A DNA stretch of 64,000 nt from Candidatus Parcubacteria bacterium (GTDB taxonomy: Bacteria > Patescibacteriota > Patescibacteriia > UBA1558 > GWA2-36-10): contig JABHSK010000008.1 of assembly GCA_018669975.1 (NCBI GenBank), forward strand, positions 2,622-66,621. The letters are read 5' to 3'. Position numbers and translations under genes: made by a program. This document shows positions 1,442 to 59,277 of this stretch, piece after piece. Every line of letters starts with the position of its first letter. Position 1 is the stretch's first letter. The notes beneath the pieces were generated by a model. It was not told the origin of the DNA, did not search any database, and worked only from the letters and a program-made list of their open reading frames with translations.

Positions 1442-2212
1442 CTACGTTTGGTCTATTAATACTTCATGGGTAAAGTACCAGTGGCCGCGGTGATTTTTTT
1501 CACCAAAGAGACGACCGGAACGAGCCCAACGACGGATAGTACTGGCATCCTTTTTGAAAAGTTTGGCAACTTTTTGGATATGCCAGTGACTGGTCATCTC
1601 CAGCCAAAGTTGCCAAATCTTGTCCAGCAATTGGGAGATACTCATGCTCCAGCGTTGTCCCAGAGCAACTTCCATATTATGCTCATTGAATTCTCCCTCG
1701 GCTCTGAGGATAGGCAGGATGACCTGATTGATGAATTCACGTTCACGTATTTTGGGGGACTTCTCGAACATAATGGGTTTTTGTCTTTTTTCCAAGTATG
1801 CTTGAAAATCACGTTGGCGGTCAGCAGCCAATTTGATATACCAGTCAATCTTCATGTCCAGCCTCCTTTGGAAAGCCACTAGGAAGTGGCCTCGCATGCT
1901 GTTGGGGATATCCCAATCCATAATCCCCATTTTGATTAATAGAGTCTGAAAATCCTCGTCATCTCGAGGAATTACCCCTCCATTTTTGAGGATGGGAATA
2001 AAGTGTCTGGTTTCTGGATTATCATATAGGAGCCCCATCTTGATTAACAGAGCTTTAAAATCTTCGTCGACAGGAATATAGTGTTCTGTATCTGGATCTT
2101 TATTTTCCAGGATAAAATCTAGGAATATTTGAAGTGTTTGAGGGGAGTCAAAATCAACCCCCAGTTTTCCATCAGATCTTGTTAGTCTGATGGTCATTTC
2201 ATCACTAGACAA
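1442..2212 (-). CDS. Hypothetical protein with C-terminal excisionase/MerR-like HTH (HTH_17-type) and internal DEDF-x-LLIKMG repeats
   Basis: C-terminus ...DASTIRRWARSGRLFGEKNHRGHWYF matches the 'TVYRWI..GKLPA.K.G..WRF' excisionase-family DNA-binding motif. Two internal repeats (EHYIPVDEDFKALLIKMGLL / RHFIPILK..DEDFQTLLIKMGIM). Confidence 0.5.
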   Translation of the reverse strand: MSSDEMTIRLTRSDGKLGVDFDSPQTLQIFLDFILENKDPDTEHYIPVDEDFKALLIKMGLLYDNPETRHFIPILKNGGVIPRDDEDFQTLLIKMGIMDWDIPNSMRGHFLVAFQRRLDMKIDWYIKLAADRQRDFQAYLEKRQKPIMFEKSPKIREREFINQVILPILRAEGEFNEHNMEVALGQRWSMSISQLLDKIWQLWLEMTSHWHIQKVAKLFKKDASTIRRWARSGRLFGEKNHRGHWYFTHEVLIDQT

Positions 2213-2293
2213 AACTAGCCTCTTTTCGTTTTAAGGTTTTGGAAAGATCATTTCGCCTGCATTTAAGTATATTTTAGAGTTTTTGTCAATACT

Positions 2294-3937
2294 TTAGAGG
2301 TTTTTGGTCATATAGGTGCCTTCTAATGTATAACCAAGTTTTTTATAATAATTTCGTACCCCAATTCCGGAAATCACAGCCACTTTATTGAGTTTGTTAG
2401 CTCTGGTTATTTTTTCAGCTTCAGCCATCAATTTTTTTCCAAAACCACTGTGCTGAGTTTGTGATGTTTCGTCATCCAAACCTTCACCATAAGTTGGAAT
2501 CATTTTGCCATAAACATGTAGTTCACGAACTATACTAGCACCTTTTAGCTCCTCAAAAATATTCTGTTGTGAATTTTCATTGAGCCGTAGTCTTAGGAAG
2601 GCATAAATTTTTTGTCTATCTGGACTTTCAAAGCTTAAAAATATTTCACGACCCCTTGAGGACTTATATTCTCTAGTCACTAGTTCAGCTTGAGCGATAC
2701 CTGTGGTATCACCTTTTACTTCACGGCAGCGAATACACTGACAAGCTTTATTTTGTTTTTTGAGTCCCTGTTGTAGATATTGTCGTAGATTTGTAATTTT
2801 GTTACCAGCGGTAATACTTTCTTCAGGGATATCTCTAATTAAACGGTTAATGCGAACATATGGAGGAGTTAGTAATTTTATTTTCATCAATAAATCTGAT
2901 AAATCTTTTTCAGAATATGGTTTATATTTACCATCTTGATACCATTTGTGTAGTTCGGAATATTCGTTGACTATGCAGGGATATATTTTTATTTGATCTG
3001 GCTGCAGGTCAGAGGACTCAAAAACATATTTAAACATTTTTAAATCTTTGTCAGGACTTGAACCTGGTAGGTCAGGCATATAGTGATGATCTACTTTGAA
3101 TCCAGTCTCTTTTAGTAATCTAGTGGCTTCGATACTTGATTGTAGATCATGACCTCTTTGGATTTTGTCTAAAATTTTATTATCAGTGTGCTGAATACCG
3201 ATTTGTACTCTAGTGCAGCCTAAATGACGCATCCTTTTTATTTCAGCGGCTGTGACAAAGTCTGGTCTAGTTTCCAAAGTCAGGCCAATGATTTTATATT
3301 TAGTGTCTTCGTTTATTTTTTGTTCTTCTTCCAGACTTTTAGCGTGTCTTTTTTTCGTATCACCAAAAGTGTTTGCAGCAAAAAAACAATCACGAATAAA
3401 TTCATCCTGATATTTGACTGGATAGACAGACCAGGTGCCACCCAAGACTAATAGTTCTAATTTATCAACCTGATGACCATTGTTTAGTAGTGCCTGAATG
3501 CGCATAGTTACTTGGCGCATAGGATCAAACAAATTCATCTTAGCTCTCGCTGCTGCCGGTTCATTGGAAAGGTAACTTTTTGGCATATCTGGTTCAGATG
3601 GACAGTAAACACATTTGCCCGGACAAGTGAATGGTTTTGATAGAACTGTTATAACTGATACTCCGGATAATGTACGAACAGCTCGTTTTATTAATAATTC
3701 AGAGAATTTTCTATTTTCTTTCAATTTCCCCTTTTTTATCAAGTTTTTATATGCTACAATAAGGTTAGCTTTACTGGTTGGCGTCATTTTATGGCGGCTA
3801 AATACTTGTCGTAGAGCTTTGACAAAATCAAGTTCACTGGAATAGCTTTGTGTGGCCAGTTCCAGTACTATAGTTTCTAATTTTTCCTGCTTGTCAGGAG
3901 CCCGCTTAGCGGGATTATTTACAATATGTTTAGTCAT
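2294..3937 (-). CDS. elp3: Elp3-family tRNA uridine(34) carboxymethyl/acetyl-transferase (radical SAM + GNAT/KAT domain)
   Basis: KCVYCPSEPDMPKSYLSNEPAAARAKMNLFDPMRQVTMRIQALLNNGHQVDKLELLVLGGTW aligns with the Elp3 radical-SAM core ([30 protein letters not shown]...GHSVDKVEFILMGGTF). The C-terminal GNAT fold reads ...QHSGFGKKLMAEAEKI...GIGVRNYYKKLGY. Confidence 0.9.
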   Translation of the reverse strand: MTKHIVNNPAKRAPDKQEKLETIVLELATQSYSSELDFVKALRQVFSRHKMTPTSKANLIVAYKNLIKKGKLKENRKFSELLIKRAVRTLSGVSVITVLSKPFTCPGKCVYCPSEPDMPKSYLSNEPAAARAKMNLFDPMRQVTMRIQALLNNGHQVDKLELLVLGGTWSVYPVKYQDEFIRDCFFAANTFGDTKKRHAKSLEEEQKINEDTKYKIIGLTLETRPDFVTAAEIKRMRHLGCTRVQIGIQHTDNKILDKIQRGHDLQSSIEATRLLKETGFKVDHHYMPDLPGSSPDKDLKMFKYVFESSDLQPDQIKIYPCIVNEYSELHKWYQDGKYKPYSEKDLSDLLMKIKLLTPPYVRINRLIRDIPEESITAGNKITNLRQYLQQGLKKQNKACQCIRCREVKGDTTGIAQAELVTREYKSSRGREIFLSFESPDRQKIYAFLRLRLNENSQQNIFEELKGASIVRELHVYGKMIPTYGEGLDDETSQTQHSGFGKKLMAEAEKITRANKLNKVAVISGIGVRNYYKKLGYTLEGTYMTKNL

Positions 3938-35262: not shown

Positions 35263-35353
35263 GGAGAGGTCGCATAGTTGGTCTAGTGCGCCCGCTTGGA
35301 AAGCGGGTAGAGTGTCAAAACTCTCGCAGGTTCGAATCCTGTCCTCTCCGCCA
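35263..35353 (+). tRNA. tRNA-Ser (anticodon GGA), long variable arm, CCA encoded
   Basis: GGAGAGG...CCTCTCC acceptor stem. The anticodon stem-loop is CCCGC-TTGGAAA-GCGGG (anticodon GGA). There is a long extra arm (GTAGAGTGTCAAAACTCTCGCAG) and a T-loop GGTTCGAATCC, ending GCCA. Confidence 0.85.
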
Positions 35354-45862: not shown

Positions 45863-47650
45863 ATGAATCCGGTAGAAGAAGTTAAGAATAAACTTGATAT
45901 TGTGGAGATAGTTTCAGGCTATATTAGCTTGAATCAGGTCGGTGGCAACTTTAAAGCTTGCTGCCCTTTTCATAATGAAAAAACACCAAGTTTCATGGTA
46001 TCTAAAGAAAAACAAATTTACCATTGTTTTGGCTGTGATAAGGGTGGAGATGTAATTAGTTTTGTGCAGGAGTATGAAGGGATAGATTTTAAAGAGGCCT
46101 TGAGAATTTTAGCTCAAAAAGCCAACGTGCCTCTTAGTGGGTTTAGCTTTAAACAAAAACAAGATTATAGTCGTCTTTATGAAATAAATAACTTAGCCGC
46201 CGATTTTTATCACAACTTGTTGATGCAGGATTCGCAAGTTGGTAAAAAAGTACTCAAATATTTAGATAATAGAAAAATCAATAAAGGCAGTCTCACTAAT
46301 TGGAGACTGGGTCTATCAGGAGAAAGTTGGGATGGGCTACTCAAGTATTTAATTTCCAAAGGTTTTAAAGAGCAGGATATATTTGAGGCCGGTCTTATTT
46401 TAAGGAAAAAAGATGGTAGTGGGTATTTAGATCGTTTTCGTAAACGATTAATGTTTCCCATTTCTGATACACAGGGTAGGGTGGTTGCTTTTACTTCACG
46501 AACTTTATCTGGTATTGCCTATGATGAAATTGAGCAGGGTGGTAAATATATAAACAGTCCCCAAACCGCCATTTATGATAAGAGTAAAGTTTTGTATGGC
46601 TGGCATTTAGCCAAAGATACGATTCGCAAGAAAAAATATTTGATTATAGTAGAGGGCAACATGGATGCCATCGCTGTATCTCAGACTAGTTCCAAAAATG
46701 TTGTGGCAGTATCTGGTACAGCTCTAACCGCTGATCATATTAAATTGATTAAAAGGTACGCTAATAATATTATTTTGGCCTTTGATGGTGATGCAGCTGG
46801 ATCACGAGCAGCTTTTAGGAGTGTGGTGCTAGGTTGGCAAAATGATATGAACCTGAAGATATTGATTTTACTCAAAGGAAAGGATCCGGCAGACATCGTC
46901 AAAGAGGATCCGCAGAAGTGGTTGCAATTGGTCAAAGATTCAGTGCAGGTCATGGATTATTATTTTAAACGTATTATTGCTGGCGTTGATTTGAGTCGGG
47001 CAGATCACAAGAAGATAGCTATTAGTAAATTATTGCCGATTATTAAATTTCTAAAGAGTCAGGTAGAGCAGGCGCACTATTTAAAATTGATTTCCGATAG
47101 GTTGCAAATACCTTTAGAGATATTACAACAAGATTTAACTAGTACAAAGTCTTTTATAGAAAATCAACAAACCCCGACTACTAAGAGTAATGAAACACAG
47201 AAGAGGGTCTCGTTTTCTCTTAGCGAAGAGTTGTTGTCACTGGTCTTTTTAAAGGGTATTTATCTTGAAAAATTGGTCGCCGAAGTCGAGCCAGAGATGG
47301 TTTCTTCTGACCTAGAGTCCCTTTACAGAAAGGTTGTAATCTACTATACTAAGCATCAGAATTTGGATAATTTCATAGATTATTCAGAATTAGACAATAA
47401 TGAAAAAGAAGCATGGGTAAGATTGTCTATGCTAGGCGAGAAAGACTATCAAAGTTTATCAGATACTGAATTGCTAGATAGTTTTGAAAGTATGTTGTCC
47501 AATCTCAAATTACGTCATCTAGAGGATAAACGGAAAGAGTTAATTGTTGATATTAAGCAGTCGGAATTGACGGGTGATGAACAAAAAGTCAATCAATTAG
47601 AAAGTGAAATTCATTTATTAGGAAAAGAAATAGAAAAGTTAAAAAAATAA
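45863..47650 (+). CDS. dnaG: DNA primase
   Basis: CHC2 zinc finger [35 protein letters not shown]. The Toprim domain reads [13 protein letters not shown] ... AFDGDAAG. Confidence 0.9.
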
Positions 47651-47663
47651 TTTACAGCTAAAT

Positions 47664-49028
47664 ATGCCTGTAAAGAAAAAGACTACAATTAAAAAGAAGA
47701 TCACTAAGAAAGTGGTCAAAAAAAACACTGCCAAAAAAAGCAGTGCTACCAAACCTATCAAGGTACGTAAACCGGTTGCCAAAAAGAAAAAAGCAACGGT
47801 CAAAAAAACTACCAGCAAAAAGGTAACTAAAAAAACTCCTAAAAAAGTGGTTAAGAAAACCAAGGCAGTTAAAAAAGTTGCCAAGAAAACAACTAAGATT
47901 GCCAAGAAAAAGGCGGTCAAAAAAGTAAAAGCTCCAAAGGCAAAACTTAATAAGGACTTGGTTGAAAATTTAATCAAGAAATCTCGTTCACGTAGCTTTA
48001 TTACAGAAGACGAGGTCTTGAGGATTTTTACAGACATGGAAGATTATACTTCAAGCTTTGAAGATTTCCTAGATACATTGGATGACCTAGCTATTCAGAT
48101 TATTGCCACCGAAGGCGGTATTCTGGATATGCAAGCCAATGCTTCCGATATTTTATCAAAATCAGGATTAGGTAGCGACAAGAATCGTGGTGACCTGACA
48201 GATATTGCATCGGATTCTATTCAGATGTATCTCAGAGAAATAGGCAAAGTGCCTTTGCTAAAAGGAGAGGAAGAGGTAATGTATGCCAAGCGTAAGGAAA
48301 GAGGACAGTTGGATGCTAAAAAGAAGTTGATTGAAGCAAATCTTCGTTTGGTAGTTAGTATTGCCAAAAAATTTACTGGCAGGTCACTGACACTTTTGGA
48401 TTTGATCCAAGAAGGTAACATCGGGTTATTTAGAGCAGTGGAGAAATTTGATTACCGCAAGGGGTATAAATTTTCTACCTATGCAACTTGGTGGATTCGC
48501 CAGGCTATTACTCGTGCCCTAGCTGATCAATCTAGAACTATCAGAATTCCAGTTCATATGGTTGAAACAATTAATCGTTTTAATCAAATAGAGCGTAGAC
48601 TAGTCCAAGAATTGGGCAGAGATCCATTGCCAGAAGAAATTGCTGCTGAGATGGGCGAAGAAGTTGACAAGATTAGACAGATTATAAAAATATCCCAAGA
48701 GACAGTTTCTTTGGAAGCATCAGTTGGTGATGATGATGAAGATAGTACTCTAGGAGACTTCATTGAAGATGAGAAGAATATCGGTCCTGACAAAGTAGCT
48801 TCATTAAAGTTATTAAGTGATCATGTTAAAAAAGTTATTTCTGATTTGACTCCTCGAGAGCAGAAAATTTTGGAGATGCGCTTCGGTCTAAGTGACGGAG
48901 TAGCACATACCTTGGAAGAAGTTGGACAGGAATTTGGTGTGACTCGTGAGCGTATTAGACAGATAGAAGCCAAGGCTCTAGAGCGTATCAAAAAGCACGA
49001 AGACATGAGAAAATTGAGAGATTACTAA
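47664..49028 (+). CDS. rpoD: RNA polymerase sigma-70 factor RpoD with Lys-rich N-terminal extension
   Basis: Region 2 [40 protein letters not shown]. Region 4 [24 protein letters not shown]. The N-terminal roughly 95 aa are a K/T/V-rich low-complexity tract. Follows dnaG as in the conserved macromolecular-synthesis operon. Confidence 0.9.
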
Positions 49029-51219: not shown

Positions 51220-51255
51220 TTTAGACAAAAAATTCACCTTGACCTTATCCATGAC

Positions 51256-51290
51256 GCGTGTTATAAATAAGTGTTTTTGTAGTACTTTTA
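51256..51290 (+). promoter_or_regulatory. Candidate sigma70-like promoter (TTGACC-17-TATAAA) upstream of the MutS-domain gene
   Basis: ttgacc ttatccatgacgcgtgt tataaat, about 100 nt upstream of the RBS aaaaggagag. Confidence 0.3.
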
Positions 51291-51388
51291 TATTTAGAGA
51301 ATAACTAGTGTTTTAGACTAGTGCTATATAGATTATCGTAAGTATTGTCACGGTAAAAACCTAAAACCACACTCAAAAGGAGAGTCAA

Positions 51389-53425
51389 ATGGCCGCAACC
51401 GTACCGAAGATTCCCTATCCGGAACCTGATAAGCTCACTCTTTGGAACACCAGTGTTTCCAAGAAGGATCGTCTCAGGATTATTAATGAGGAAGATTTTC
51501 CTCGCGAGGAGATTCTCAGTAGTCTGGGTCTGGGTAAGAAATCGGAATTGGTCAAAAGTTTTGGTATCACTGATGAAGGTGAGCTTCGTGCTCGTCATGC
51601 ACTCGGTGCCATGCTCTTAGCCGACGATGATTTCATGGACTGGTCACGACAGAATCATCGTTCGTTACCCAATATTCCCGCGAACGAAGGAGCTTTTTTG
51701 GAGTTCTATGATCCCCAGTTGGAGCACAATCCCTACTGGACTGAAGTTCATCGTTTCCTGGCTTTCGTGGACAACTATCCCGATCCGCCTGTCAGGCTCA
51801 AGCAAGTAGCTGACAAGCTGCGCGAAGGCTTACCTCTCGAGGACATGGAGACCGAAATGGCTCGGCAGATTGCTGAGCGACTCAAGGTCGTCACGGTTAT
51901 CGAGGGTGTCATGCACATGAGACTGGTTGTGGATCACTATACGCCTACCAAGAAAAATGCCGAAGGCGAGAAGGTTCCCAATGGTCCGTCATTTTGGAGA
52001 CTGAAAGATATTTCTCATTCACACAGCAGGGTATTTGGCCATCGGCTCTATAGTCAAGGCCTGTCCTCTGTGCGTATGGTGGAAAATCCCGACTGGAACA
52101 AAAGCAAGTGGAATCCGGCCATCTGGCTGGGTATTGCTAAGGCTTGGCGGGGTGTCGTTAATCTGCGTAACTGGTGGCGTCGCCGTAAGGCTTATCGTCA
52201 GATGGTGATCACCGGGCAAAGCAAAGATATGGTTAAGGATGTTGGCGACGCTATCAAGCGACGCATTTCTAAGGTTCCTATGAGCGATAAGTTCAATGGA
52301 GCGCTAGTGACAGTGTCTTTTGTCTATGACAAGGATGGTCTTAGGGTTCAGATTATGGACATCAAGTCTGCCAAGCGTACCCTGGATAGTGATCAACGTC
52401 GCGAGATTTCTTCGGGCGTCGATAATTTCGAGGGCTATACTTCATTACAGAAGGAGCAGATCGAAAGGGCTCACGTCGAGCGACGTGAAGCTGCTATGGA
52501 ACTGCAACGTTGTCAGAAGTCCGACGCTCTGCGCCTACTTTTAGCAGCAGTTAATCCAAGCTTCTTCAGTAGTCTGACAACCGAGCGCTCAACGGAGATG
52601 GACAAAGAGTATCGCTGGTTCGCTATCAGTAATGAATACTACGGTCGCTGGGATGAGCTTTATCAAGCTCTGCGTCAGAATCGTGGTTTCTTTACCCGTC
52701 ACTTCAATCGACTGAGCCAGGTGGCTGAGTTGGTCAACAAGGTGGCTGATAAGGGTAGAGATCTCGGTGTCCCTGTTTGTTCACCGGAGATTGTTTCCAA
52801 TGGTCATATTGTGGTCTTTGAAAAACTCTGGCCTACACACCTGCTTTTCCGTTTGGATCGCAAGTCGGTAGTTCCGATCGAGCGTTTGCCCGAGCTCAAT
52901 GGGCAGATGATCGGTTTGACTGGCAAGCATGGTGGCGGCAAGACTGAAACTCAGATTGCGGTGGTAGCCAACATCTATCTGGCCCATTCTGGTGTACCGG
53001 TCTTCGGCAGCTACTTCAAGTCCAACGTCAAAAAGGTGTTGGGTATGGTCTTTATTGCCCAGCGTGGTGATGGCTCGACCTGCGAGATGTTGCTGGCCAA
53101 GATCCGCAAGGTCCTCGAAGGTATCAAAAAGTGCGACGGCAGAGAAGTCGTACTGGTACTGGACGAGGTCGGTTCGGCTACTCAGGAAGTGGCTGGCTTC
53201 GAACTCGGTCGTGACCTGCTGTCCACTCTGTCCGGACGAAACGTCTCTGTGCTCTTTAGCACGCAGATCACTTCGCTGGCAGAGTATGCTGACACTGAAC
53301 TGGGAGCTTTGAGTTTCCAGATGGATCGCAAGCACAGGATTAATACCGGCATCGGTGATGGCGGCATGACTGACTTGCGTCGTTCCATGGGAGTGGATAA
53401 GTTCCTGACCAAAGTCGCTAGCTAA
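51389..53425 (+). CDS. Standalone MutS domain V-like ABC ATPase with large uncharacterised N-terminal region
   Basis: C-terminal 230 aa: IGLTGKHGGGKTETQIAVVANIYLAHSGVPVFG (compare MutS [31 protein letters not shown]), GDGSTCEMLLAKI (MutS GRSTFMVEM), VVLVLDEVGSATQEVAGFELGRDLLSTL (MutS [23 protein letters not shown]), VLFSTQITSLAE (MutS TLFATHYFELT). The N-terminal roughly 450 aa have no recognisable motif. The coding DNA is visibly G+C-richer than the genome background. Confidence 0.6.
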   Translation: MAATVPKIPYPEPDKLTLWNTSVSKKDRLRIINEEDFPREEILSSLGLGKKSELVKSFGITDEGELRARHALGAMLLADDDFMDWSRQNHRSLPNIPANEGAFLEFYDPQLEHNPYWTEVHRFLAFVDNYPDPPVRLKQVADKLREGLPLEDMETEMARQIAERLKVVTVIEGVMHMRLVVDHYTPTKKNAEGEKVPNGPSFWRLKDISHSHSRVFGHRLYSQGLSSVRMVENPDWNKSKWNPAIWLGIAKAWRGVVNLRNWWRRRKAYRQMVITGQSKDMVKDVGDAIKRRISKVPMSDKFNGALVTVSFVYDKDGLRVQIMDIKSAKRTLDSDQRREISSGVDNFEGYTSLQKEQIERAHVERREAAMELQRCQKSDALRLLLAAVNPSFFSSLTTERSTEMDKEYRWFAISNEYYGRWDELYQALRQNRGFFTRHFNRLSQVAELVNKVADKGRDLGVPVCSPEIVSNGHIVVFEKLWPTHLLFRLDRKSVVPIERLPELNGQMIGLTGKHGGGKTETQIAVVANIYLAHSGVPVFGSYFKSNVKKVLGMVFIAQRGDGSTCEMLLAKIRKVLEGIKKCDGREVVLVLDEVGSATQEVAGFELGRDLLSTLSGRNVSVLFSTQITSLAEYADTELGALSFQMDRKHRINTGIGDGGMTDLRRSMGVDKFLTKVAS

Positions 53426-53502
53426 TTCTCTAATCTATATTCCCTGTCACTTCGGTGGCAGGGCTTTTTATTTTCTTGAAAAACAGAATACCCCTTTAAT
53501 CG

Positions 53503-53531
53503 TTGACATTTCGTAAAAAATATGGTATTAT
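53503..53531 (+). promoter_or_regulatory. Strong sigma70-like promoter (TTGACA-17-TATTAT) followed by a leader hairpin
   Basis: ttgaca-tttcgtaaaaaatatgg-tattat. About 30 nt downstream is the hairpin accacg-gggttt-cgtggt, within the 5' leader of the 53576/53606 ORF. Confidence 0.45.
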
Positions 53532-53605
53532 TTCTAATCGCGTAAATTTAAGCGCAAAACCCACCACGGGGTTTCGTGGTAGCACTTTCACAAAGAGGTT
53601 GTGCA

Positions 53606-54205
53606 ATGCACGATTACACGGTTGTACTGGGTGTTGGAGCAGCTTTGTTCCACGGTGCAGCCTACGTGTTGTACAACATCCAAACTCACTTCGGAAAATC
53701 AAAACCAAATCCAGCTAGCTGGGCCATTTGGACACTGTTGTCTATTTTAAATGCCTGGTCTTTTAAGGAAGTTAGTGCGGACAATCTGTCCACTCTGCAA
53801 TTTTTTACTGGCTCGGTGGCCTGCATGATCACTTTTTTCTATACCTGGTATCGAGGTAAACTCAAAAGCCTCAAGCCTAGCGAATGGAGAATTTTAGCTC
53901 TAGCTTTGTCAGTCATCCTAGTCTGGCGAATATTTAACAGCGCTACTGGTGCTAACATGCTCGTCGTCCTAACTTTCATCATTTCATTTATTCCCACCCT
54001 TAAGGGTGTACTAGCTGATCCGTTCAAGGAGTCACCGCGTTCTTGGTGGCTATGGACTATGGCTTTTGCCCTTACCATCGGTAGTATCCTACTGCGTTGG
54101 AGGGGAGAACCTCTAGCACTGGTCATGCCGATCGTTCTGTTGATTGCTCACGGCAGTATTGCCGTACTTTCATCGCAGAAGCGTAAAGATAAATTTTCCA
54201 CTTGA
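53606..54205 (+). CDS. Hypothetical multi-pass membrane protein (G+C-rich island)
   Basis: About 200 aa with 6 predicted TM helices (VVLGVGAALFHGAAYVLY...; WAIWTLLSILNAW...). The start is ambiguous between GTG/ATG 53576 and ATG 53606 (MHDYTVVL). G+C is higher than the flanking genome. Confidence 0.45.
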   Translation: MHDYTVVLGVGAALFHGAAYVLYNIQTHFGKSKPNPASWAIWTLLSILNAWSFKEVSADNLSTLQFFTGSVACMITFFYTWYRGKLKSLKPSEWRILALALSVILVWRIFNSATGANMLVVLTFIISFIPTLKGVLADPFKESPRSWWLWTMAFALTIGSILLRWRGEPLALVMPIVLLIAHGSIAVLSSQKRKDKFST

Positions 54206-54217
54206 GTTATTCGACAC

Positions 54218-54265
54218 CGAGGCAAGTATTTCACAGCATGTGAAACAACTACCTCGGTTTTTTAA
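54218..54265 (+). terminator. Rho-independent terminator
   Basis: accgagg-caagtatttcacagcatgtgaaacaactac-ctcggtttttt. Confidence 0.55.
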
Positions 54266-54305
54266 TAAATAAAAGAACAGCTCCACGGGGAGTTGTTCTT
54301 CAAGT

Positions 54306-54797
54306 CTAATTTTTACTAGTACCTATCACTATCAAAGTTTTTCCATTGTCTTCTCCAATGGTAATGGAGACACTACGGTCATCTTTCTCAGCGCCTAGCA
54401 TGACATTGTTTTCAATCACGAAAGACATGGTTGTATTCCAGCCTTCTTCTTCTAATTTGTTTTCATACTCCTCTTGTAGCTCGGTGACAGATTTAGTAGA
54501 TTCAATACTGACATTAAAGATTCCATTTTCATGACTAGAGGCAGAAGTAATTGCACCTTCGGCAATATAAATGTCATCTGGCCAATCTTCAGGTAATTCT
54601 GTTCCAGCGCCAACTTGCATCGTGCCTTCATCAGTTTTTATTTTTACAGAGTCATCGTCTAGATCCACATCTGCATTGCCACCCATGGAGTTTTCAATTT
54701 GTTTCTCCATTGATTTTTCAGTAGCCGTTTTCTTGCCACAAGCACTAAGTGTTAGTGATAGCAACAAACAAAAGCTAATAATAAAGAGTTTTTTCAT
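54306..54797 (-). CDS. Putative lipoprotein (hypothetical)
   Basis: Signal peptide plus lipobox: MKKLFIISFCLLLSLTLSACGKK. The mature part is acidic and soluble. Confidence 0.5.
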   Translation of the reverse strand: MKKLFIISFCLLLSLTLSACGKKTATEKSMEKQIENSMGGNADVDLDDDSVKIKTDEGTMQVGAGTELPEDWPDDIYIAEGAITSASSHENGIFNVSIESTKSVTELQEEYENKLEEEGWNTTMSFVIENNVMLGAEKDDRSVSITIGEDNGKTLIVIGTSKN

Positions 54798-54806
54798 ATG
54801 CTTTTA

Positions 54807-55454
54807 TTAATTATTGAATAAATAATTTCCTCCGGTAGCACTACAGGTGCCGGCTGCATAGGTGATTAAGTCACCAGTGATTGGATCACCACCATGAGGA
54901 TAATACCAAATAATTGTTTCGTAACTAGTACCAACAGAATTTTGGCAGCCTCCTGAGGTGGGTTGCGGACAAGGATTATCACTATATATGCCTACACCTT
55001 GGCAGTTTAAATCTTTGACACTTGGGGTTGCCCAATAAGAGCCAATATAGTCTGTGCAAACACTAGAATCGTTTATCACATTACATGAACCAATAGCATT
55101 AGACTCCTCACCACTACCTGGTCCGTTTGGTTCATCATCTTCTAGTCCAGCATAATAATCGTCTGATCCGGGTCCTTGTGGCTCTGGTTCATATGGCAGT
55201 TCTTCACCTGATCCGGGTCCAGTTGGTTCTGGTGAATAATCGAATTCACCACTGCCAGGACCATCGTAGGCGGGATCATGTTCTAGTCCAGCATTATAAT
55301 CATCTGAACCGGGATTATCGTATTCGGCAAAATCTCCACTACCTGGTCCTGTCGGTTCGTCGGGAAACCAATCATCAAGTTGAGTATAAATAATGCCACC
55401 AACAATTACTAAAGCAGCTGCTCCTCCTATGGCAATTCCCTTTAATCTATCCAT
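54807..55454 (-). CDS. Secreted/anchored acidic repeat protein with GPGSG(E/D) repeats and Cys-rich C-terminal domain
   Basis: N-terminal TM helix, then at least 5 repeats of (E/D)P-x-GPGSG(E/D)... (PTGPGSGDFAEYDNPGSDDY / DGPGSGEFDYSPEPTGPGSGEELPYEPEPQGPGSDDYY / PNGPGSGEE). The C-terminal roughly 90 aa contain 8 Cys. Confidence 0.45.
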   Translation of the reverse strand: MDRLKGIAIGGAAALVIVGGIIYTQLDDWFPDEPTGPGSGDFAEYDNPGSDDYNAGLEHDPAYDGPGSGEFDYSPEPTGPGSGEELPYEPEPQGPGSDDYYAGLEDDEPNGPGSGEESNAIGSCNVINDSSVCTDYIGSYWATPSVKDLNCQGVGIYSDNPCPQPTSGGCQNSVGTSYETIIWYYPHGGDPITGDLITYAAGTCSATGGNYLFNN

Positions 55455-55543: not shown

Positions 55544-56614
55544 TTAATTGGGTTGGCGATAAGCGAATTTGTATTTCAGTTCTTTTTCTACCAACTCACC
55601 CTCCCAGGGACCAACAAAGGTAGCTCCGGCCAACCAGTCTTTGCTCTCAGTGCTGTAGCTACGACTAGCTCGGTAGGCCTTTTTGCCATCTCGGCCAACA
55701 CGGTAACACAAAAAGCCTCCGTAGTTATTGAGTGCAACTACAACCCAGTCAAGCTGATCATTAAGCCACTCATCTGATCCTTTGGATTGTTTTCTTACAT
55801 TGACTCTGACATGGGCTGGTAGCGGCAGGTCTCTGATAGTTCCCTTACGGATGATATCACCTGACTTGAATGTCTTAGGCACTCTTTCTTTCTTAGGCTT
55901 TTGAGCCTGTGCCTTGGGTACGTCTGCCAAGCCTCGTTGTTCCAGTGTTTCGCAGAGAAGATTCAGGAATTCGATATCCCGTTCGACACGAGTGGCCTTG
56001 AAAGAAGCATCGTAATCGACTACTTCAAAGTCAGGGTCTGCATCCCGTATTTCTTCTTCTACATCAGCGTAGGACATAAGCACTTGGGCATAGGCCGAAC
56101 GTTTGTCGGCAAGGATTTCACAGATAGCTGTGATATTTTTTTCTTTCCAGCCATAGTCTTTGCCAAACATCCCAGCGCCATGATACTCAGCACCCTTTTG
56201 TTTGCCAACGCCTCTGAGGAAGCGGACAAAAGCTGAGCGAGCCCAAGTCTTGGGAATTTCTGTCAGTGCCCGAAGGATAGTATAGAGCTCTCGGCGGCTT
56301 TGAGGGTTGTTGTGAATATCGAGCACTTCAATTGTTTTTGGTGCATCAGAATTAACAAATGCACCGTCCAAGGAAATGAATAATTCACCACGACTGCCAA
56401 CAAAAATCAGCAGAGCATTGAGGAATTCGTTTGGCCGTGCTTGTACACGGCGAACCTTGGTAATTAGATGAGCTCCCTCGATAGCTTCTTTCTGAGCCCA
56501 ATACTCACTATGTGACATGCCGGCATCTCGTTTTTGAGCATATTCAGTGCTGGCAGCATCCAAACTCTTTTTTAATGCTACTAACTCTGTCTTAGTGAAA
56601 AGTGGTTTAGCCAT
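55544..56614 (-). CDS. Hypothetical 356-aa protein (orphan, G+C-rich)
   Basis: Good RBS (aaaggaggcc-ATG on the minus strand) and uninterrupted coding potential. No family motif recognised. G+C is clearly above the genome background. Confidence 0.5.
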   Translation of the reverse strand: MAKPLFTKTELVALKKSLDAASTEYAQKRDAGMSHSEYWAQKEAIEGAHLITKVRRVQARPNEFLNALLIFVGSRGELFISLDGAFVNSDAPKTIEVLDIHNNPQSRRELYTILRALTEIPKTWARSAFVRFLRGVGKQKGAEYHGAGMFGKDYGWKEKNITAICEILADKRSAYAQVLMSYADVEEEIRDADPDFEVVDYDASFKATRVERDIEFLNLLCETLEQRGLADVPKAQAQKPKKERVPKTFKSGDIIRKGTIRDLPLPAHVRVNVRKQSKGSDEWLNDQLDWVVVALNNYGGFLCYRVGRDGKKAYRASRSYSTESKDWLAGATFVGPWEGELVEKELKYKFAYRQPN

Positions 56615-56763
56615 TTTGGCCTCCTTTGTTTGTGGTCTTGTTTCAAGGTGCTATATTAAAAACAATAGATATGCCATAATATTTCACCTTACCTTAGCAC
56701 TTAGCCATTTATTCTGTCAAACAAAAAACCGATCAATCTAGATCAGTTTTTATATTCAAAATT

Positions 56764-57399
56764 TTATTTAACGAGATATCGTTGAGCCTCTGCCAGTTTG
56801 TTTTTGAAGTGGGTATCTGTATTGTATAGTTTTAAGTTATATTTTTTTGCCTCCCTATTAAAAAATTTACTGAGCTCAACTATCATATGAGCAATTTTCA
56901 AGTAGGTTGTTTCATTTTTCGTTCTATTCACAAACCAATCATTTTTATCTGCAAATTTTTTACCCTTACTTACAATATCCTCGGCGTCCATTTTTGTAAA
57001 AAAGACAGCCCTTACATTGCGTGGTCCATATTTCTTGCTTAGTTTTTTAACTAGCTCAGGATGAATATGGTAGCCTTCGATAACAATACTCCTACCCTCA
57101 TATAATTCACAGTCAACAAATGTCTCAACGGCAGTCCATATTGCCCGTGACTGTTTGAGGTAAGTGGAGGTTATTTGCTTAGTGGTATATTGACTGTACA
57201 TTAAATCATTGCTGTATTTGGTTTTTCTTCTGATGACAGTTTTGGGAAATTTTTTTGTTATTTCTTTTGCTGACATACAAGATCGGACAACTCTTTCAAG
57301 GGTGTCTGTAGATAACCAACTAACATTCAATTTTTTGCTTAGTCTTTTTGCGGTAGTTGTTTTACCACAGCGTGGTGCACCACCTATTAAATAAATCAT
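56764..57399 (-). CDS. P-loop NTPase/kinase-like protein
   Basis: MIYLIGGAPRCGKTTTAKRLS Walker A at the N-terminus. An internal Met was chosen as the start rather than the upstream MFIKKCYNLC extension. About 210 aa, AT-rich (native composition). Confidence 0.5.
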   Translation of the reverse strand: MIYLIGGAPRCGKTTTAKRLSKKLNVSWLSTDTLERVVRSCMSAKEITKKFPKTVIRRKTKYSNDLMYSQYTTKQITSTYLKQSRAIWTAVETFVDCELYEGRSIVIEGYHIHPELVKKLSKKYGPRNVRAVFFTKMDAEDIVSKGKKFADKNDWFVNRTKNETTYLKIAHMIVELSKFFNREAKKYNLKLYNTDTHFKNKLAEAQRYLVK

Positions 57400-57425
57400 G
57401 CATAAATTATAGCATTTTTTTATAA

Positions 57426-57453
57426 ACAAAAAAACCGCCAGTAGGCGGTCTTT
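57426..57453 (-). terminator. Rho-independent terminator downstream of typA
   Basis: Minus strand: agaccgcc-tact-ggcggttttttt. Confidence 0.65.
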
Positions 57454-57459
57454 AATATA

Positions 57460-59277
57460 TTAGGCTTTAGTACTTCTCTTTCTATCGTTTTCAGTTAAAC
57501 CTTGTTTACGTAGGCGGATACTATCTGGAGTTATTTCTAAATATTCATCTTCAGAGATTATTTCTAAACCAGTTTCAATAGTCAGTATAGCTGGTGGAGT
57601 CAAAGTAATAGCATCATCAGCACCTGAACTACGCATATTAGTCAGTTGCTTACCTTTGATTGGATTGACTGCCATATCAAAGCCTTTGGCGGTATTACCA
57701 ATGACCATGCCTTCGTAGACATCTACGCCAGGTCCAATATATAGATCACCACGTTCTTGCAGATTGAATAATGAAAAACCTAGAGCTTTACCAGTAGCCA
57801 TTGAAATCATAGAACCAACATTACGTTTTTTGATCTCACCAGTATAAGGACGATATTCAAGGAAGTGTGAGCAAAGGATTCCTTCACCACGAGTATCAAC
57901 AGTAAATTCACCACGATAGCCAAGCAGGCCTCTGGTTGGTATTTCAAACACCAAACGCATTTGGCCATTTTCAGTGTTCATAGAAGTGACAATACCTTTT
58001 CGTTTGCCAAGTTTTTCCATCACTACACCAGAACTGACTTCCGGCACATCGATAGTCACTTCTTCAAAAGGTTCAAATTTTTTGCCATCTCTTTCTTCGA
58101 TAATTACTTTTGGTTGAGATACTTGCAATTCATAACCTTCACGACGCATTTGTTCAATCAAGATAGCAGCGTGTAATTCACCACGACTATATACTTTGAA
58201 GTATTCACCAGAAAAATCAATTTTCATTCCAACATTAACTTCTAGTTCTTTTTCCAAACGTTCTTTGATTTGTTTGCTGGTCACATATTTACCTTCACGA
58301 CCAGCTAGAGGAGAGTTGTTTACCAAAAAATCTAGAGAGATAGTTGGTTCATCTACAGTGATAGCAGGTAGAGCTTCTTGCTCGGTGTTTAGACATAGAG
58401 TTTCACCAATATCAATACCAGGAAAACCAGCGATCATCACAATATCACCAGCCACAGCTTCTTCGGTTTCTTTTCTTTCCAAACCATGAAAGGTAAACAG
58501 CTTGCTGACACGACCAGTTTCATTTGTGCCATCCATTTTCTTTAGAGTCAAATTAGAACCAGTTTTTAGACTACCTTCATAGATACGGCCAATAGCCATA
58601 CGTCCCAAGAAATTGTCATAGGCTAGATTGAAAACCTGACAACGTAGATCAGTTTTTAAGTCTGATTTAGCAGCTGGTACTTTTTCCAAGACCACATCCA
58701 ACAGAGGCATGATATCTTTATCTTCATCAGTTAGATAGCGTTTGGCAGTACCATTTTTGGCAATAGCATAGACAGTAGTAAAATCTAATTGTTCATCAGT
58801 AGCACCCAGGTCCATAAACAATTCAAAAACTTGTTCATGAGCTAGATTAGGATTAGCAGCTGGTTTATCGATTTTGTTTAGTATAACAATTGGCTTCAAA
58901 CCCAATTCCAAAGATTTCTTTAAAACAAATCTAGTTTGAGGCATTGGACCTTCTTGAGCATCAACTACCAAGAGCACAGAGTCGATTGAACGGAGTACTC
59001 GTTCTACTTCTGAACCAAAATCAGCATGACCAGGAGTATCAACAATATTGATCTTTGTGTCTTTATAGAAGACAGAGGCGTTTTTTGAGTATATCGTAAT
59101 TCCACGCTCTTTTTCGAGTGTGTTTGAGTCCATACTGACACTTTCGTCTGATAGGGCACCTGTTTGCTTGAGGATAGCATCCGTCAAAGCAGTCTTGCCG
59201 TGATCAACGTGTGCGATAATTGCAATATTTCTTATTTCCATAGCCGCAAGGATAACAGGAATAGGGTTAAATGTCAA
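57460..59277 (-). CDS. typA: Translational GTPase TypA/BipA
   Basis: IRNIAIIAHVDHGKTALTDAIL (G1), DTPGHADF (G3), NKIDK (G4), then EF-G-like domains and the BipA C-terminal domain. Confidence 0.9.
   Translation of the reverse strand: MTFNPIPVILAAMEIRNIAIIAHVDHGKTALTDAILKQTGALSDESVSMDSNTLEKERGITIYSKNASVFYKDTKINIVDTPGHADFGSEVERVLRSIDSVLLVVDAQEGPMPQTRFVLKKSLELGLKPIVILNKIDKPAANPNLAHEQVFELFMDLGATDEQLDFTTVYAIAKNGTAKRYLTDEDKDIMPLLDVVLEKVPAAKSDLKTDLRCQVFNLAYDNFLGRMAIGRIYEGSLKTGSNLTLKKMDGTNETGRVSKLFTFHGLERKETEEAVAGDIVMIAGFPGIDIGETLCLNTEQEALPAITVDEPTISLDFLVNNSPLAGREGKYVTSKQIKERLEKELEVNVGMKIDFSGEYFKVYSRGELHAAILIEQMRREGYELQVSQPKVIIEERDGKKFEPFEEVTIDVPEVSSGVVMEKLGKRKGIVTSMNTENGQMRLVFEIPTRGLLGYRGEFTVDTRGEGILCSHFLEYRPYTGEIKKRNVGSMISMATGKALGFSLFNLQERGDLYIGPGVDVYEGMVIGNTAKGFDMAVNPIKGKQLTNMRSSGADDAITLTPPAILTIETGLEIISEDEYLEITPDSIRLRKQGLTENDRKRSTKA

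Follow-up and report, generated by a model that had tools for sequence, protein, structure and literature searches.

A solo ATPase gene with a MutS2-like core, probably representing an unnamed MutS subfamily found mostly in Patescibacteria

What kind of protein carries the motifs of the MutS ATPase at its C-terminus and nothing readily recognizable before them? The question is raised by an open reading frame (ORF) at positions 51389-53425 of the 64,000-nucleotide stretch of Candidatus Parcubacteria DNA presented above (contig JABHSK010000008.1; hereafter the window). The original prediction, made from the sequence, took its product for a standalone MutS domain V ATPase joined to an unrecognized N-terminal region, and for part of a candidate novel nucleoside triphosphatase (NTPase) system. 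Our analysis leads to a different picture, that of a MutS2-type core split by an insertion and encoded by a gene that stands alone. On balance, we favor the view that this gene represents a distinct, unnamed subfamily of the MutS superfamily with a MutS2-like core, probably acting as an ATP-gated homodimeric clamp, organized as a solo unit and occurring mostly in Patescibacteria.

The C-terminal part of the protein was examined in an alignment of 94 full-length family members, over which all motif conservation was counted. The ORF and the features of its ATPase domain are as follows.

51389-53425, + strand: ORF of 678 aa with an ATG start, MutS2-like ATPase of a candidate unnamed subfamily (translation and profile comparison)
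52769-53353, + strand: MutS domain V ABC ATPase, residues 461-655 (profile, hhalign and Pfam MutS_V)
52922-52945, + strand: Walker A GKHGGGKT, residues 512-519 (K518 and G512 each in 94/94)
53066-53089, + strand: signature motif (MutS 'STF') GDGSTCEM, residues 560-567, aligned to MutS2 and MutS (S563 in 93/94)
53147-53188, + strand: Walker B and D-loop VVLVLDEVGSATQE, residues 587-600, aligned to MutS2 DELGSGT (D592 and E593 in 94/94)
53255-53266, + strand: H-loop position FSTQ, residues 623-626, with Gln for the His of the MutS 'TH' (alignments)

The catalytic residues K518, D592 and E593 are invariant, S563 is replaced in a single member, and all motifs lie in the MutS register. The motifs named in the original prediction (Walker A, signature, Walker B and FSTQ) thus hold when aligned with MutS2 and MutS, and are conserved across the family. 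One of them departs from the MutS pattern. Q626 aligns with the histidine of MutS2 TTHL and of E. coli MutS ATHY; at this position, Gln is found in 93 of the 94 members and His in none. On this alignment, the H-loop Gln is a signature of the family.

Profile comparisons place the ATPase close to MutS2. The window protein alone retrieved the MutS2 structure 9kce from the PDB (E-value 8.9e-6). With the 94-member family profile, MutS2 structures were matched at E-values of 5.4e-16 to 1.5e-14, and MutS1, MSH2, MSH3 and MSH6 at 5e-9 to 1e-5. MutS2 structures include those of B. subtilis (7qv3), T. maritima (9kce) and T. thermophilus (7vuf). In addition, hhalign against the single E. coli MutS sequence gave a probability of 96%, with an alignment covering the ATPase core only. 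In fold, the ATPase and the lever before it resemble MutS proteins more than they do other ABC ATPases. The MutS2 equivalog model TIGR01069 of NCBIfam scores only 17 bits (E-value 1.4e-3) against a cut-off of 400. The earlier view of an ABC ATPase of MutS type that is neither MutS1 nor MutS2 is borne out.

The rest of the protein was analyzed with the help of an AlphaFold2 model. Built with the 94-sequence alignment, it reached a predicted local distance difference test score (pLDDT) of 93.2 and a predicted template-modeling score (pTM) of 0.81; with three sequences, the pLDDT was 36.6. The model delineates four segments outside the ATPase.

51476-51883, + strand: helical core, first part of MutS domain III, residues 30-165 (model helices; weak Pfam MutS_III matches)
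51884-52423, + strand: family-specific insertion, residues 166-345 (model secondary structure)
52424-52768, + strand: lever made of two helices of ~37 residues (352-388 and 422-459), residues 346-460 (model)
53354-53422, + strand: two short C-terminal helices (660-667 and 669-677), residues 656-678 (model helices)

The ATPase and C-terminal helices account for ~215 residues, and ~100-190 further residues superpose on the core and lever of MutS. This superposition fits the model, which shows the two long lever helices just before the ATPase and a helical block at residues 63-165. The core carries the motif SFGItDegElraR (residues 57-69; SFGIxDxxEIxxR in the family), with E65 in 92/94 members and R69 in 94/94. 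We take it to correspond to the '...I..R' start of domain III, as known to us from MutS alignments; the register of the profiles agrees. Indeed, weak Pfam MutS_III matches were obtained for three members (residues ~57-126 on profile positions 46-108), and in one member the match spans residues 57-444 on profile positions 46-186. Sequence alignments with Msh3 and KamC begin near residue 320, consistent with a lever that precedes the ATPase.

The insertion interrupts this core. In the model, it comprises a long β-hairpin (residues 169-219) with a tip of variable length, a basic helix (249-272), a second helix (279-293) and another hairpin (306-326). The base of the first hairpin is marked by two glycines, G173 (93/94) and G217 (94/94), and residues 241-270 have a net positive charge across the family. 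The insertion (~166-345) matched no PDB or Pfam profile, and a profile of the 345 N-terminal residues found nothing significant in the PDB. Only ~30 residues (389-421) separate the two lever helices; the model shows there one short strand and two short helices. This lever tip, with the conserved pattern SPxxDxxxxWxAxxNxY (residues 397-420), stands at the position of the MutS clamp, and no Pfam MutS_IV match covers it. At the other end of the protein, the pair of C-terminal helices resembles the helix-turn-helix dimerization element of MutS and may play the same role. Overall, the hallmarks of the family are the insertion of ~180 residues, a mini tip of ~25 residues apparently in place of the clamp and the Gln H-loop.

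Hence, according to the model, the protein is a MutS2-type core with an insertion rather than an isolated domain V with an unrelated region before it. The original prediction retains its value for residues ~166-345, which still resemble nothing recognizable; it does not hold for the core and lever of domain III, and the lever region it had denied is represented by the two long helices. Placement of the N-terminal region into canonical MutS domains, which had been named as an outcome that would change the picture, was obtained for domain III and not for domains I, II and IV. On the other hand, mismatch-binding, connector, Smr and helix-turn-helix-type effector domains are missing from Pfam scans, as had been anticipated: the window protein and the family members scanned show no MutS_I, MutS_II or MutS_IV match. 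No KOW or Smr match was obtained, either for the window protein or for the longest family members, which contain no additional Pfam domain, and the window protein stops ~23 residues past the ATPase.

We then consider how widespread such proteins are. An exhaustive profile search covering 1.84 billion representative proteins returned just 329 matches at E≤1e-3, of which 208 reach E≤1e-30. The majority of these proteins measure 640-700 aa and align over their whole length. It was this search that exposed the family. A word-index homology search had found two relatives with the single protein and one with the 94-sequence alignment, so few because its candidate list saturates. When 185,579 species genomes were scanned with sequence patterns, 21 loci were recovered. 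As 51 of the 94 aligned members would be detected by these patterns (54% sensitivity), the gene is present in no more than a few dozen species. A further 29 loci came from metagenomes.

Record titles point mostly to Patescibacteria (Parcubacteria, Nomurabacteria, Saccharibacteria, Uhrbacteria and Vogelbacteria). Other labels occur on some records, and one locus, L012 (JBDRIN010000004.1), is titled 'archaeon'. There, the family gene adjoins a phosphate-selective porin O/P gene (1829-3064; E-value 8e-19), so the contig comes from a diderm bacterium and not from an archaeon, and some labels of metagenome-assembled genomes (MAGs) are doubtful. As judged from such sequences, the family is not strictly limited to Patescibacteria. 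In a Candidatus Uhrbacteria MAG (L021, 9797-11991), the family gene is split into overlapping ORFs of 237 and 494 aa, which points to a frameshift, to a pseudogene or to faulty assembly. Two named members checked in NCBI and IMG are annotated 'hypothetical protein'; this, together with the base composition described below, bears out the description of the gene as uncharacterized and compositionally foreign.

Is the gene part of a larger system? Its own signals, read on the same strand, suggest otherwise.

51239-51267, + strand: promoter-like element, TTGACC (51239-51244), 17-nt spacer, TGT-TATAAA (-10 at 51262-51267) (read from sequence)
51379-51382, + strand: ribosome-binding site GGAG, 6 nt 5' of the ATG (sequence)
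53442-53473, + strand: intrinsic terminator on the 3' side of the ORF, 9-bp stem and T-run, hairpin at 53442-53463 (terminator scan)

The ORF, the promoter-like element and the strong ribosome-binding site described earlier at the head of the G+C-rich island are therefore all present in the sequence. A consensus promoter scan had passed over the promoter, the reason being that the final base of its -10 hexamer is A. Comparison was made with L001, the locus of the closest relative, whose protein is 85% identical. Both promoter hexamers are kept in L001 despite a nucleotide divergence of ~20%, and so is the terminator. With its own conserved promoter and terminator, the MutS2-like gene is an autonomous monocistronic unit and a member of no operon or system. 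The two orthologues differ by 0.09 nonsynonymous substitutions per site (dN) and 0.68 synonymous ones (dS), giving a dN/dS ratio of ~0.13 that shows purifying selection on the gene. No second MutS-like ORF was found in the 64-kb window.

The genomic context of the family agrees with this autonomy. When all ORFs of 51 loci were clustered, no conserved neighbor appeared beyond the synteny of close relatives, and no distant paralogue lies adjacent to the gene at the family loci. The 136 genes located within two positions of it are housekeeping genes, such as those for NusA, ribosome-binding GTPases, RecR, UvrD, ribosomal protein S13, PPDK, H+-PPase and GatB. The idea of a multi-gene NTPase system, to which the membrane protein encoded downstream would belong, is not sustained by these results, this membrane ORF being absent from L001.

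The base composition of the gene is unusual. Across 51-56 kb of the window, the G+C content rises from ~0.35 to 0.43-0.50. Of 38 loci, 16 have a family gene whose G+C content at third codon positions (GC3) lies over 0.1 above the mean of its neighbors; a deficit of that size occurs in none (Wilcoxon p 4e-6). Outliers, with a GC3 of 0.51-0.68 versus 0.29-0.42 for the neighbors, include the window, L007, L008, L011, L015, L020, L024, L029-L031, L035, L036 and L050. This excess and the patchy distribution would favor horizontal movement from GC-richer donors. Yet the excess lasts across a deep clade: the window, L001, L006, L031, L007 and L008, at ~47% identity, all have a GC3 of 0.51-0.58, in hosts where the neighbors have 0.29-0.37 (L006 has no scorable flank). 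Simple recent transfer would not predict such persistence. Between the window and L001, dS is 0.68 for the MutS2-like gene and 1.0-2.2 for the flanking genes.

How might such a protein work? In the dimers formed by MutS and MutS2, the signature serine acts in trans in the composite ATP sites, and ATP binding shifts the lever arms. By extension, the window protein is most likely an ATP-gated homodimeric clamp. The two subunits would pair by their ATPase domains and C-terminal helices, with each composite ATP site taking Walker A and B from one subunit and the signature serine from the other. With ATP bound, the two lever arms would close around a bulky substrate, a nucleic acid or a nucleoprotein, which the conserved tips and the basic insertion would hold. 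The change of His to Gln in the H-loop probably slows hydrolysis and suggests a switch-like behavior. Hydrolysis, when it occurs, would free or remodel the substrate. The architecture of MutS2 and its need for ATPase activity have been described (PMC10897456). By analogy with MutS2, branched or duplex DNA would be the most likely substrate, with the stalled ribosome as the alternative. We would rank DNA junctions or duplexes first, then stalled ribosomes, since no relative is closer than MutS2 and the gene has a weak typA/GTPase neighborhood. A conflict role would be third: the gene occurs sparsely, is mobile and has a foreign composition, though it is without an effector, a partner or a defence-island context.

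Several points weigh against an ATP-gated clamp built on a MutS2-like core. The Pfam MutS_V (PF00488) match of the window protein (E-value 0.021, 15.3 bits) lies below the gathering threshold of 30.2. The same profile matches all 19 of the 19 locus-encoded members, of which L023 (37.8), L024 (35.0) and L019 (30.2) alone reach that threshold. Used by itself as a sequence profile, the lever segment found nothing significant in the PDB, and the domain boundaries are based on model secondary structure, aligned lengths and weak profile matches. Dimerization, DNA binding and ribosome binding in the family are predicted from sequence and model alone. As KamC illustrates, the target of a MutS-like ATPase can be a protein and not a nucleic acid. 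In addition, the clamp model does not account for a distribution that is sparse and patchy or for the anomalous GC3, both of which suggest an accessory or conflict role. Finally, KOW and Smr, needed by MutS2 for recruitment to the ribosome (disome) (PMC10897456), are both missing here.

This last point also counts against one rival, namely a ribosome quality-control ATPase that, like MutS2/RqcU, would split stalled or collided ribosomes, the insertion and the N-terminus replacing KOW and Smr as recruiter. We consider this quite unlikely. Besides the loss of the two disome recruiters, one would expect to meet a rescue factor in many more species than a few dozen. The relationship to MutS2 and the GTPase neighborhood speak for it, the latter being a weak association (Fisher p 0.09, from a crude count). 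As a separate observation, TypA/BipA orthologues (66-70% identical) are found a few genes away in three distant branches: in the window (57460-59277, - strand), in L015 (12050-13831) and in L026 (9019-10815). In L026, an EngB-like GTPase gene lies between typA and the MutS2-like gene.

A second rival is a single-gene conflict module, active against phages or plasmids or in the control of incoming DNA. A mobile MutS-like clamp would sense foreign DNA structures or replication/recombination intermediates and block them sterically, with no separate effector. Much in the distribution is compatible with it. The gene is sparse and patchy, with the ~21 loci given above; these come from distant classes of Patescibacteria and at least one diderm bacterium, in a genomic context that differs at nearly every locus, and the gene alone is the GC3 outlier in the 16 of 38 loci. 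It is also an autonomous unit from promoter to terminator. Against this stand the lack of any nuclease, TIR, membrane or other effector domain in the protein and of any conserved partner gene, while the neighbors are housekeeping genes and not defence genes. A search of PADLOC-DB v2 gave only mad8 at the level of the P-loop (E-value 8.4e-4, residues 506-592), a PHROGs search gave nothing, and no copies were found in phage, plasmid or IMG/VR collections. Moreover, the lasting GC3 richness of the deep clade is at odds with recent transfer. We therefore judge this module quite improbable as well, and the role in defence islands or conflict systems put forward in the original prediction, including the proposed co-occurrence with nucleases or membrane proteins, receives no support from the loci.

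Far less probable still is a vertically inherited MutS2 orthologue of Patescibacteria that has lost its Smr/KOW tail. The MutS2-like core, the flanking synteny kept between the window and L001 (collinear from an upstream glycosyltransferase-like gene to typA) and the recurrence of typA would fit. In contrast, very few species genomes contain the gene, and its composition is far from that of the host. The family profile, with its 329 matches among the 1.84 billion proteins, does not reach canonical MutS2, the TIGR01069 score is far too low, and both the insertion and the Gln of the H-loop are peculiar to the family. As for a KamC-like protein-remodeling or reactivase ATPase acting on an enzyme and not on nucleic acid, it is equally improbable: KamC is the best NCBIfam match (E-value 6.9e-6, residues 321-627 on profile positions 145-428), but with 25.1 bits it is far under the cut-off of 300, the similarity is limited to the shared MutS lever and ATPase, no aminomutase family is listed among the Pfam families of the 136 neighbors, and no B12 or KamB-like gene occurs among them.

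The ATP-gated clamp with a MutS2-like core thus remains our preferred reading. A bolder version of it can be imagined, which we regard as unlikely: a horizontally mobile single-gene clamp with a function new for MutS. It could be a self-sufficient sensor-blocker of foreign or aberrant nucleic acids, or a ribosome-collision factor independent of KOW and Smr in ultra-small episymbiotic bacteria. The insertion would then serve substrate recognition and the Gln H-loop would act as a slow timer. The GC3 excess would reflect selection on the gene's own composition, for instance the throttling of a dangerous protein by rare codons.

Other ORFs in and near the G+C-rich island deserve mention. Directly downstream, a multi-pass membrane ORF of 209 aa (53576-54205, + strand) is preceded by a near-consensus promoter of its own (TTGACA-17-TGnTATTAT, 53503-53531) and sits between the terminators of two convergent flanking genes (53474-54288). 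No family match was found for it. The earlier description of a separately promoted membrane protein is correct as to the ORF and its promoter; the ORF is not kept in the otherwise syntenic L001, which indicates an indel. It was considered as a partner of the MutS2-like gene and rejected, L001 having the latter without the former. A P-loop kinase-like ORF of 221 aa (56764-57429, - strand), with AAA_18, AAA_33 and shikimate-kinase-like matches, is likewise missing from L001 (region 56732-57414). There, the gene for a 356-aa protein directly adjoins typA with no kinase ORF between them.

In the window, this 356-aa ORF (55544-56614, - strand) has no family assignment. It is G+C-rich like the MutS2-like gene (0.46 in the window, 0.50 in L001), is 79% identical to the L001 copy with a dN/dS of ~0.12, and is not found beside other family members. 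Its only matches are weak, to the N-terminus of DrmC (E-value 0.006) and to a short repeat in the PDB. A secreted-looking protein of 215 aa (54807-55454, - strand) is built from (E/D)P-x-GPGSG(D/E) repeats, after which comes a C-terminus rich in Cys. The gene, kept in L001, has a G+C content of 0.44 and a GC3 of only 0.24. It adjoins the gene of a 163-aa lipoprotein (54306-54797, - strand; PF27226 AF_1845 in the relative), also kept in L001. Elsewhere in the window, the only Rfam match at the gathering threshold is an 88-nt tRNA (35263-35350, + strand), the length of which suggests a long variable arm. In addition, a sigma-70 (RpoD-like) ORF (47664-49028, + strand) has a lysine-rich N-terminal extension of ~100 residues that gives rise to a long spurious antisense ORF (47639-48037).

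What does such a family add? MutS2 has lately been reassigned from anti-recombination to ribosome rescue. MutS paralogues devoid of domains I and II are numerous and mostly uncharacterized, and the present family adds a natural test of the bare MutS2 core. Motor and levers are kept, the known recruitment and effector modules are gone, a new insertion is present and the His of the catalytic H-loop is consistently Gln, so that the family would also allow a test of how specificity for a substrate is added to such a core. The family is also a defined, structurally predictable addition to the 'hypothetical proteins' of Patescibacteria, and its gene-specific GC3 excess is a clear compositional signal without an explanation. 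Existing concepts are unchanged unless the substrate proves unexpected.

Comparison with known systems situates the family. In contrast to MutS1/MSH proteins, it has no mismatch-binding domain I or connector domain II and apparently no β clamp, and shows no such Pfam matches. MutS2 is arranged as core/lever, clamp, ATPase, KOW and Smr, and the family likewise has a core and lever near the N-terminus followed by the ATPase. It differs from MutS2 in ending shortly past the ATPase without KOW and Smr, in having what looks like a small helical tip for the clamp and the long insertion in the core, and in the replacement of the H-loop His by Gln. KamC (NF052383), the MutS-like reactivase of lysine 5,6-aminomutase, resembles it in having a lever and an ATPase with neither domains I/II nor a nuclease; the N-terminal halves are unrelated. 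Among viruses, MutS7 and MutS8 of giant viruses (530-1112 aa) are the sole structural matches (BFVD Foldseek, E-values of 7e-14 to 1e-9), no better than those to cellular MutS (TM-scores of 0.28-0.41), and no homologue from a bacterial virus was found in the phage and IMG/VR collections.

A further comparison concerns other prokaryotic MutS paralogues. Patescibacteria, the main hosts of the family, were not known in 2007. In that year, MutS3, MutS4 and MutS5, which have no domains I and II, were described by Lin, Nei & Ma (PMC2190696), and other prokaryotic MutS subfamilies without these domains are largely uncharacterized (PMC12292046). Like the present family, MutS3-5 have a C-terminal MutSac/domain V, sometimes with MutSd/domain III, a patchy distribution with suspected horizontal transfer and no known function. 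By description, they are set apart in that they were found by ordinary BLAST/SMART similarity, whereas the family mostly falls under the Pfam MutS_V threshold. MutS4 occurs as adjacent A/B pairs, unlike the solo gene studied here. As an indirect indication, the full-length family profile, with 329 matches among 1.84 billion proteins, does not extend to other subfamilies of MutS. Hence, with MutS3-5 compared by description only, the family belongs with the MutS paralogues devoid of domains I and II, and by its defining features it is distinct from MutS1, MutS2 and KamC.

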